Below, piece after piece: positions 1 to 285 of a stretch of DNA of 285 nucleotides. The position numbers and the translations under genes were made by a program. Source of the stretch: a phage; sequence record AF419418.1. The stretch is one strand, 5' to 3'. The notes beneath the pieces were generated by a model, which saw nothing but the letters and a program-made list of their open reading frames with translations, did no database searches and had not been told where the DNA came from. Each line of letters opens with the position of its first letter. Position 1 is the first letter of the stretch.

Positions 1-285
1 ATGGCTATGTCTAACATGACTTACAACAACGTTTTCGACCACGCTTACGAAATGCTGAAAGAAAACATCCGTTATGATGACATCTGTGACACTGATGACC
101 TGCACGATGCTATTCACATGGCTGCCGATAATGCAGTTCCGCATTACTACGCTGACATCTTTAGCGTAATGGCAAGTGAGGGTATTGACCTTGAGTTCGA
201 AGACTCTGGTCTGATGCCTGACACCAAGGACGTAATCTGCATCCTGCAAGCGCGTATCTATGAGCAATTAACGATTGACCTCTGG
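1..285 (+). CDS. ocr: Ocr (overcome classical restriction), phage T7 gene 0.3 type DNA-mimic anti-restriction protein; N-terminal 95 codons, 3'-partial (runs off the window end)
   Basis: Frame +1 is open across the entire window from ATG at 1-3 with no in-frame stop, while + frames 2 and 3 hit stops almost immediately (tga 17-19, taa 10-12). The translation matches my recollection of T7 Ocr essentially residue for residue, including the motifs [34 protein letters not shown] and [13 protein letters not shown]. Composition is strongly acidic (14 Asp + 6 Glu against 2 Lys + 2 Arg in 95 residues), as expected for a DNA mimic. Codon usage is typical of E. coli and T7 early genes (ctg, gac, aac, cgt). 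The window ends at Trp95, so the C-terminal acidic tail and the stop codon lie outside it. Confidence 0.93.

Follow-up and report, generated by a model that had tools for sequence, protein, structure and literature searches.

The 5' part of an ocr (gene 0.3) allele on a T7 backbone with R29C, R80C, and two silent changes, all of them C>T

Ocr, a protein of phage T7, is a small, very acidic, all-helical homodimer whose shape and charge both resemble a bent stretch of B-DNA of about 24 bp. It is the product of ocr (gene 0.3), which is transcribed more heavily than any other early gene of T7. Its mode of action is treated in PMC3439906, PMC2806950, PMC7261183, and PMC7064336. The essential mimicry has been assigned to about 12 central Asp/Glu residues, and the loss of basic residues is seen as part of Ocr evolution (PMC3439906). 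Ocr inhibits BREX by binding BrxX/PglX (PMC7261183, PMC11317158, PMC11842806), and it also binds bacterial RNA polymerase (PMC7064336; PDB 6R9B). Moreover, it is Ocr that triggers abortive infection by the PARIS (AriA/AriB) system, F54 and L82 are residues of the dimer interface as well as sites of PARIS escape, and the reported escapers are F54V, L82P/R, T7A, M1V, and W95-stop in addition to upstream and null mutations (PMC9122126, PMC10802264). Thus, the three activities listed in the preliminary description of the DNA analyzed here, i.e., that Ocr blocks type I restriction-modification (R-M) enzymes, antagonizes BREX, and is sensed by abortive infection (PARIS), are all in the literature. 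Two truncations delimit the part of the protein that matters against restriction. Ocr99, in which the C terminus is truncated to leave 99 residues, has intact activity and overcomes restriction; and the W95-stop allele (284G>A) was among the PARIS-escaping T7 mutants obtained by selection on cells with both EcoKI and PARIS (Table S4B, PMC9122126). Its selection on EcoKI+ cells implies that residues 1-94 suffice against EcoKI. Together, the two truncations argue that the first 95 residues cover the active core of Ocr and that the acidic C-terminal tail is dispensable for anti-restriction.

Here, we analyzed a stretch of 285 nt (the window). It consists of a single plus-strand frame that begins with ATG at nt 1-3, contains no stop codon, encodes 95 residues, and runs off the 3' end. 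Besides this main frame, there are two open reading frames of at least 20 aa, each of 31 aa and in other frames, which we treated as chance occurrences. On both strands, the window had no structured-RNA match in Rfam at E≤1. By megablast against the 50,697 phage records of INPHARED, the window matched 178 records, and the top matches were all isolates of Escherichia phage T7, which at nt 925-1209 were 98.6% identical to the window over its entire length (E=5e-141). In GenBank V01146, this interval lies within the coding sequence (CDS) at 925-1278, which carries the annotation "gene 0.3, inhibits EcoB and EcoK host restriction" and is the first to follow the host promoters A1-A3. At the protein level, the window matched the Ocr chains in PDB (1S7Z, 2Y7C, and complexes) over residues 1-95 with E=2e-58, and these chains are named [quoted passage not shown]. 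It also matched Pfam family PF08684 ("DNA mimic ocr"; 195.4 bits, E=2.2e-58, covering the profile from position 1 to 93 out of 101) and PHROG 2568 ("ocr-like anti-restriction"; E=7.9e-49). With this megablast E value and 195 bits against a curated Pfam cut-off of 25 bits, the match is far above chance. We conclude that the window almost certainly represents codons 1-95 of the 117 codons of ocr (the 5' 81%) on a T7 backbone, in the form of an R29C/R80C allele that encodes a presumably working DNA mimic. The features of the window are summarized in the table.

Table. Features of the 285-nt window and their relation to T7 ocr.
Feature	Position (nt)	Strand	Remarks
ocr codons 1-95	1-285	+	Open frame; V01146 925-1209; PF08684; PHROG 2568; the wild-type CDS has 117 codons plus stop
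ocr start codon ATG	1-3	+	Corresponds to nt 925, where the gene 0.3 CDS begins in the annotation
C>T, CGT>TGT, R29C	85	+	Compared with T7; located in the loop that joins predicted helices 8-26 and 31-45
C>T, CAC>CAT, H48 silent	144	+	Compared with T7; T also in natural relative L017
C>T, GGC>GGT, G61 silent	183	+	Compared with T7; T also in natural relatives L007, L017, and L019
C>T, CGC>TGC, R80C	238	+	Compared with T7; within predicted helix 76-94
Codon F54 (TTT), unchanged	160-162	+	Dimer interface and PARIS-escape site (PMC9122126, PMC10802264)
Codon L82 (CTG), unchanged	244-246	+	Dimer interface and PARIS-escape site (PMC10802264)

These results are in agreement with most of what had been proposed for the window from its letters alone. 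The window does contain an uninterrupted frame that is the 5' part of a gene, its best DNA matches are to T7 gene 0.3 at 925-1209, the CDS coordinates proposed for this gene (925-1278) are exactly those annotated in V01146, and a comparison with Ocr protein entries returns the Ocr chains of PDB and the Pfam family. Similarly, its reading as the well-known anti-defence gene ocr is supported by the gene 0.3 match, PF08684, and the PDB chains; ocr is an already known and thoroughly characterized anti-defence gene. The one statement that needs correction concerns the degree of identity. The product was described as near-identical to T7 Ocr, which holds with 93/95 identical residues and 281/285 identical nucleotides (98.6%) in an ungapped alignment to T7 925-1209; however, identity close to 100% had been expected, and the four C>T changes that make the gene non-wild-type, R29C and R80C among them, were overlooked. 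Like T7 Ocr (UniProt OCR_BPT7; PDB 1S7Z; V01146), the window has the same start codon, the acidic residues, F54, L82, and the predicted fold; unlike T7 Ocr, it has four C>T changes and two cysteines, and the last 22 codons of the gene lie beyond its 3' end.

In a base-by-base comparison with T7, there are exactly four differences, at positions 85, 144, 183, and 238, and each of them replaces C by T on the coding (nontranscribed) strand. Two cause the substitutions R29C and R80C, while those in the codons of H48 and G61 are silent. The 95 residues comprise 14 Asp and 6 Glu versus 2 Lys and 2 Arg, giving a net charge of -16, as the preliminary description had estimated. The corresponding wild-type T7 segment has a net charge of -14, and the difference is accounted for by the two Arg>Cys substitutions, which remove positive charge; all 20 Asp/Glu residues of the wild-type segment are retained, while two of the six basic residues of Ocr are replaced by Cys, a residue that is absent from the wild-type protein. 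Both substitutions occurred in the context ATC|CGN, leaving the segment with two of its four Arg CGN codons. None of the defence-relevant sites considered (EcoKI, EcoBI, EcoAI, EcoR124I, BREX GGTAAG, EcoP1I, EcoP15I, Dam, Dcm, and Chi) is created or destroyed by the four changes, and the only restriction sites lost are one FokI site and one AciI site.

To place R29C and R80C in the context of the family, we used an alignment of 122 sequences, i.e., the window, T7 Ocr, and the 120 cluster representatives that scored best in a protein search. Among the 121 homologues, column 29 holds Arg in 96, Asp in 14, Thr in 6, Cys, Gln, and Lys in one each, and a gap in two; column 80 holds Arg in 75, Val in 16, Lys in 9, Ser in 5, Cys in 4, Gln in 4, and His in 3, in addition to others. 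By comparison, Arg is invariant in column 85, and F54 and L82 are near-invariant (>90% conserved). The window retains the family residue in every invariant or near-invariant column, and the amino-acid changes are confined to the variable columns 29 and 80. Cys29 occurs naturally in a distant homologue (P0111) and Cys80 in four homologues (P0015, P0019, P0065, and P0037, the last being the cluster that holds the Ocr of Yersinia phage phiYe-F10). The Cys80 homologues resemble the window in the ...KDV(I/T)... stretch and carry the R80C state in the same helix; however, they share only 81-92% protein identity with the window, have Arg at position 29, and have non-T7 residues elsewhere.

An AlphaFold2 model of the window protein, built from a 43-sequence alignment, has a mean pLDDT of 85.5 and five helices (residues 8-26, 31-45, 50-59, 64-68, and 76-94). 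When compared with PDB, this model matched eight chains, all of them Ocr, with E≤5e-8, TM scores of 0.71-0.80, and probability 1.00, while the next match had E ~0.9; with an rmsd of ~5.5 Å to the Ocr chains, the model is approximate. The structural matches included the Ocr-BREX entries 8Q56, 8ZEK, and 9EX7 and the AriA-Ocr structure 8V45. The window therefore has the features of the Ocr family, i.e., the profile match, an all-helical fold in the model, the excess of acidic residues (20 Asp/Glu versus 4 Lys/Arg), and the conserved interface and core residues. Because positions 29 and 80 vary in the family, with natural Cys at both, and because R85, F54, L82, and all acidic residues are unchanged, the R29C/R80C allele most likely encodes a working Ocr. 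From the 98% identity to a characterized protein, we infer that it would inhibit type I R-M and BREX; and, by analogy to T7 Ocr, it would dimerize, mimic DNA, bind RNA polymerase, and trigger PARIS. The new cysteines could conceivably affect folding, oxidation, or partner binding.

The exact allele was not found in the INPHARED phages, in which the best record is 98.6% identical. Likewise, PLSDB plasmids and complete E. coli genomes had no match to the window, and exact patterns across either Cys codon were absent from IMG/VR, JGI metagenome contigs, and GTDB genomes. We also looked up nine candidate proteins (the full-length double mutant and single mutants, each with the wild-type tail, two variants with C>T changes in the tail, alternative starts, and the bare 95-mer) by exact match in a collection of 15 billion proteins, and none of them is on record. 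Among the natural homologues in the collections searched, none combines R29C with R80C. The papers examined on Ocr and PARIS, including those in Cell Host Microbe 2022 and Nature 2024, do not mention R29 or R80, or R29C or R80C in connection with Ocr, and two of them also contain no mention of R28 or R79, the corresponding residues in the numbering of the mature protein.

Laboratory isolates of T7 are 97.9-98.6% identical to the window, followed by phage JB01 with 95.4% and all others with ≤92.6%. This distribution, with 98.6% to T7 isolates and then a gap to the nearest natural relative, fits the three sources that had been considered at the outset (T7, a very close relative, or a derived construct). 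The window also has N44 and A51, while most close relatives have Ser at these positions. We considered whether the window could be a mosaic or recombinant with the relatives examined and rejected this idea: the relatives with T at position 144 or 183 (L017, L007, and L019) have flanking differences that are missing from the window, as is the case for positions 142, 143, 156, and 177 in L017. These missing differences argue that the window is T7 with four isolated point changes and not a mosaic of the relatives examined. On the sequence evidence, the backbone is T7 proper, and the source is probably a mutagenized or drifted T7 derivative.

How, then, did four changes of a single type arise? It is quite possible, although we hold this only tentatively, that a C>T-specific mutational process acted on laboratory T7 or on a cloned ocr gene and that the two Arg>Cys substitutions are unselected passengers. 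In the comparison of T7 with 16 natural relatives over this segment, C>T is the commonest class among 388 differences (111, or 29%, versus 26 G>A); under this spectrum, four of four changes being C>T has a rough P of ~0.007, with the caveat that the counts are neither independent nor polarized. The remaining 281 bases are those of reference T7 and carry no mosaic signal. Moreover, 40 of the 71 C sites in the segment are silent when changed to T, and the observed ratio of two silent to two missense changes is, therefore, what is expected of unselected C>T hits. A mutational rather than a selective cause is also suggested by the ATC|CGN context that the two Arg sites share. Plausible candidate processes are deamination of cytosines in the nontranscribed strand (spontaneous, by heat, or during transcription), treatment with a GC>AT mutagen (hydroxylamine or nitrosoguanidine), and targeted deaminase-T7 RNA polymerase mutagenesis. 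Work by Beletskii et al. from 2000 is reportedly linked to cytosine deamination of the nontranscribed strand during transcription. ocr is dispensable in hosts without type I R-M, and laboratory lines readily gain ocr mutations, including C>T nonsense mutations. GC>AT changes caused by heat, MNNG mutagenesis of T7, and mutation induced by T7 RNA polymerase are documented or cited in PMC8923235, and deaminase-T7 RNA polymerase systems yield exclusively or predominantly C:G>T:A changes (PMC10250238). However, four changes in 285 nt (1.4%) are far denser than the zero to two changes in this segment of sequenced laboratory-evolved T7 lines, and no line of this kind was found in the collections searched. 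Also, given a process that causes only GC>AT changes, the bias to one strand is not significant (P=0.13), nor is the enrichment of the four changes at CpG hotspots (P=0.24), and the dinucleotide contexts of the changed cytosines (CC, AC, GC, and CC) fit no single deaminase motif.

Alternatively, the window could represent a natural sister lineage of T7 that has not been sampled, in which the four differences arose by drift and are all C>T by chance in combination with the known strand excess. In support of this idea, C>T is the commonest class of difference among the natural relatives, sites 144 and 183 are C/T-polymorphic in these relatives, and Cys occurs naturally at positions 80 and 29. 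We consider such a lineage unlikely, since the natural isolates on record reach at most the 95.4% of JB01, the contexts of the Cys codons did not turn up when IMG/VR, JGI metagenomes, and GTDB genomes were scanned for exact matches, and natural relatives differ mainly at silent sites and by mixed types of substitution.

An explanation that we regard as slightly more doubtful is that the changes are nonbiological, i.e., that they reflect DNA damage or sequencing error (a deaminated template or a low-coverage assembly) or deliberate edits of the reference. C>T is the classic artefact of deamination, the allele is missing from all collections searched, and the window begins exactly at ATG, as would a CDS that had been cut out. 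However, the reading frame is intact although two of the 71 possible C>T hits would have given stop codons, and 285 bases alone cannot demonstrate an artefact.

Finally, that R29C and/or R80C were selected, because they alter PARIS-like recognition or improve mimicry through the loss of positive charge, is very improbable: two of the four changes did hit Arg CGN codons, of which there are only four (P ~0.014), affecting the variable arginines and not the invariant R85, the net charge did drop from -14 to -16, and R80 is two residues from the PARIS-escape site L82, but this test is post hoc, and neither substitution is among the reported PARIS escapers or is mentioned in connection with Ocr in the literature examined. 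Compared with the PARIS-escape alleles F54V, L82P, L82R, T7A, and W95-stop, the allele in the window likewise has point mutations in ocr against a T7 background, and R80C shares a helix with L82; however, other residues are affected, and the escapers hit the dimer interface or abolish expression. We see little chance that the window represents either a selected Ocr variant that keeps anti-restriction but has changed defence or target recognition, or a C>T record of a deaminase or of transcription-coupled deamination acting on ocr.

Ocr is the textbook DNA-mimic anti-restriction protein, and its presence in the window adds nothing new on phage counter-defence. Rather, what is new is the correction that the window is non-wild-type T7, with a C>T-only allele in which two Arg>Cys substitutions lie at family-variable positions and which is unmatched in the collections searched. 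We suggest that this allele matters mainly for provenance and as a caution that "near-identical" is not "identical". If the Cys changes had been selected, they would be a further data point on the variation of Ocr under pressure from R-M, BREX, and PARIS.

Several minor observations were made in the course of these analyses. The last codon of the window is W95 (283-285), the same codon that is altered in the W95-stop PARIS escaper; this coincidence is probably meaningless. Ocr in laboratory-evolved lines of T7 (P0136; QZB84632 and others; 18 contigs) carries F54L ("ADILSVM"), in lines that had been adapted to heat or to an Amberless host. F54L affects the same dimer-interface residue as the PARIS-escape substitution F54V, though PARIS selection was not applied. 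In the IMG/VR contig IMGVR_UViG_3300045988_002335 (L020), the match at 301-579 has 77% protein identity and starts from query residue 3 (279 nt versus 285), and its ungapped nucleotide identity of 26.7% is an out-of-register artefact of the fixed slice and not real divergence. P0065 (158 aa) and P0006 of phage phiA1122 (140 aa; PF27024 and PF08684) are much longer than the usual Ocr of 113-123 aa; one of the two has an acidic C-terminal extension of ~40 aa, and the other has a match to a second Pfam domain and may have a mis-called start. Lastly, the ocr CDS is annotated as "protein kinase" or "receptor binding protein kinase" in MZ375235, MZ375236, OL964750, MN481365, MW074885, and other records. 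In the evolved T7 lines, this label is probably due to the known deletion of 1.4 kb by which gene 0.3 becomes fused to gene 0.7, while in the natural phages PHB19 and JB01 it looks like a propagated misannotation.
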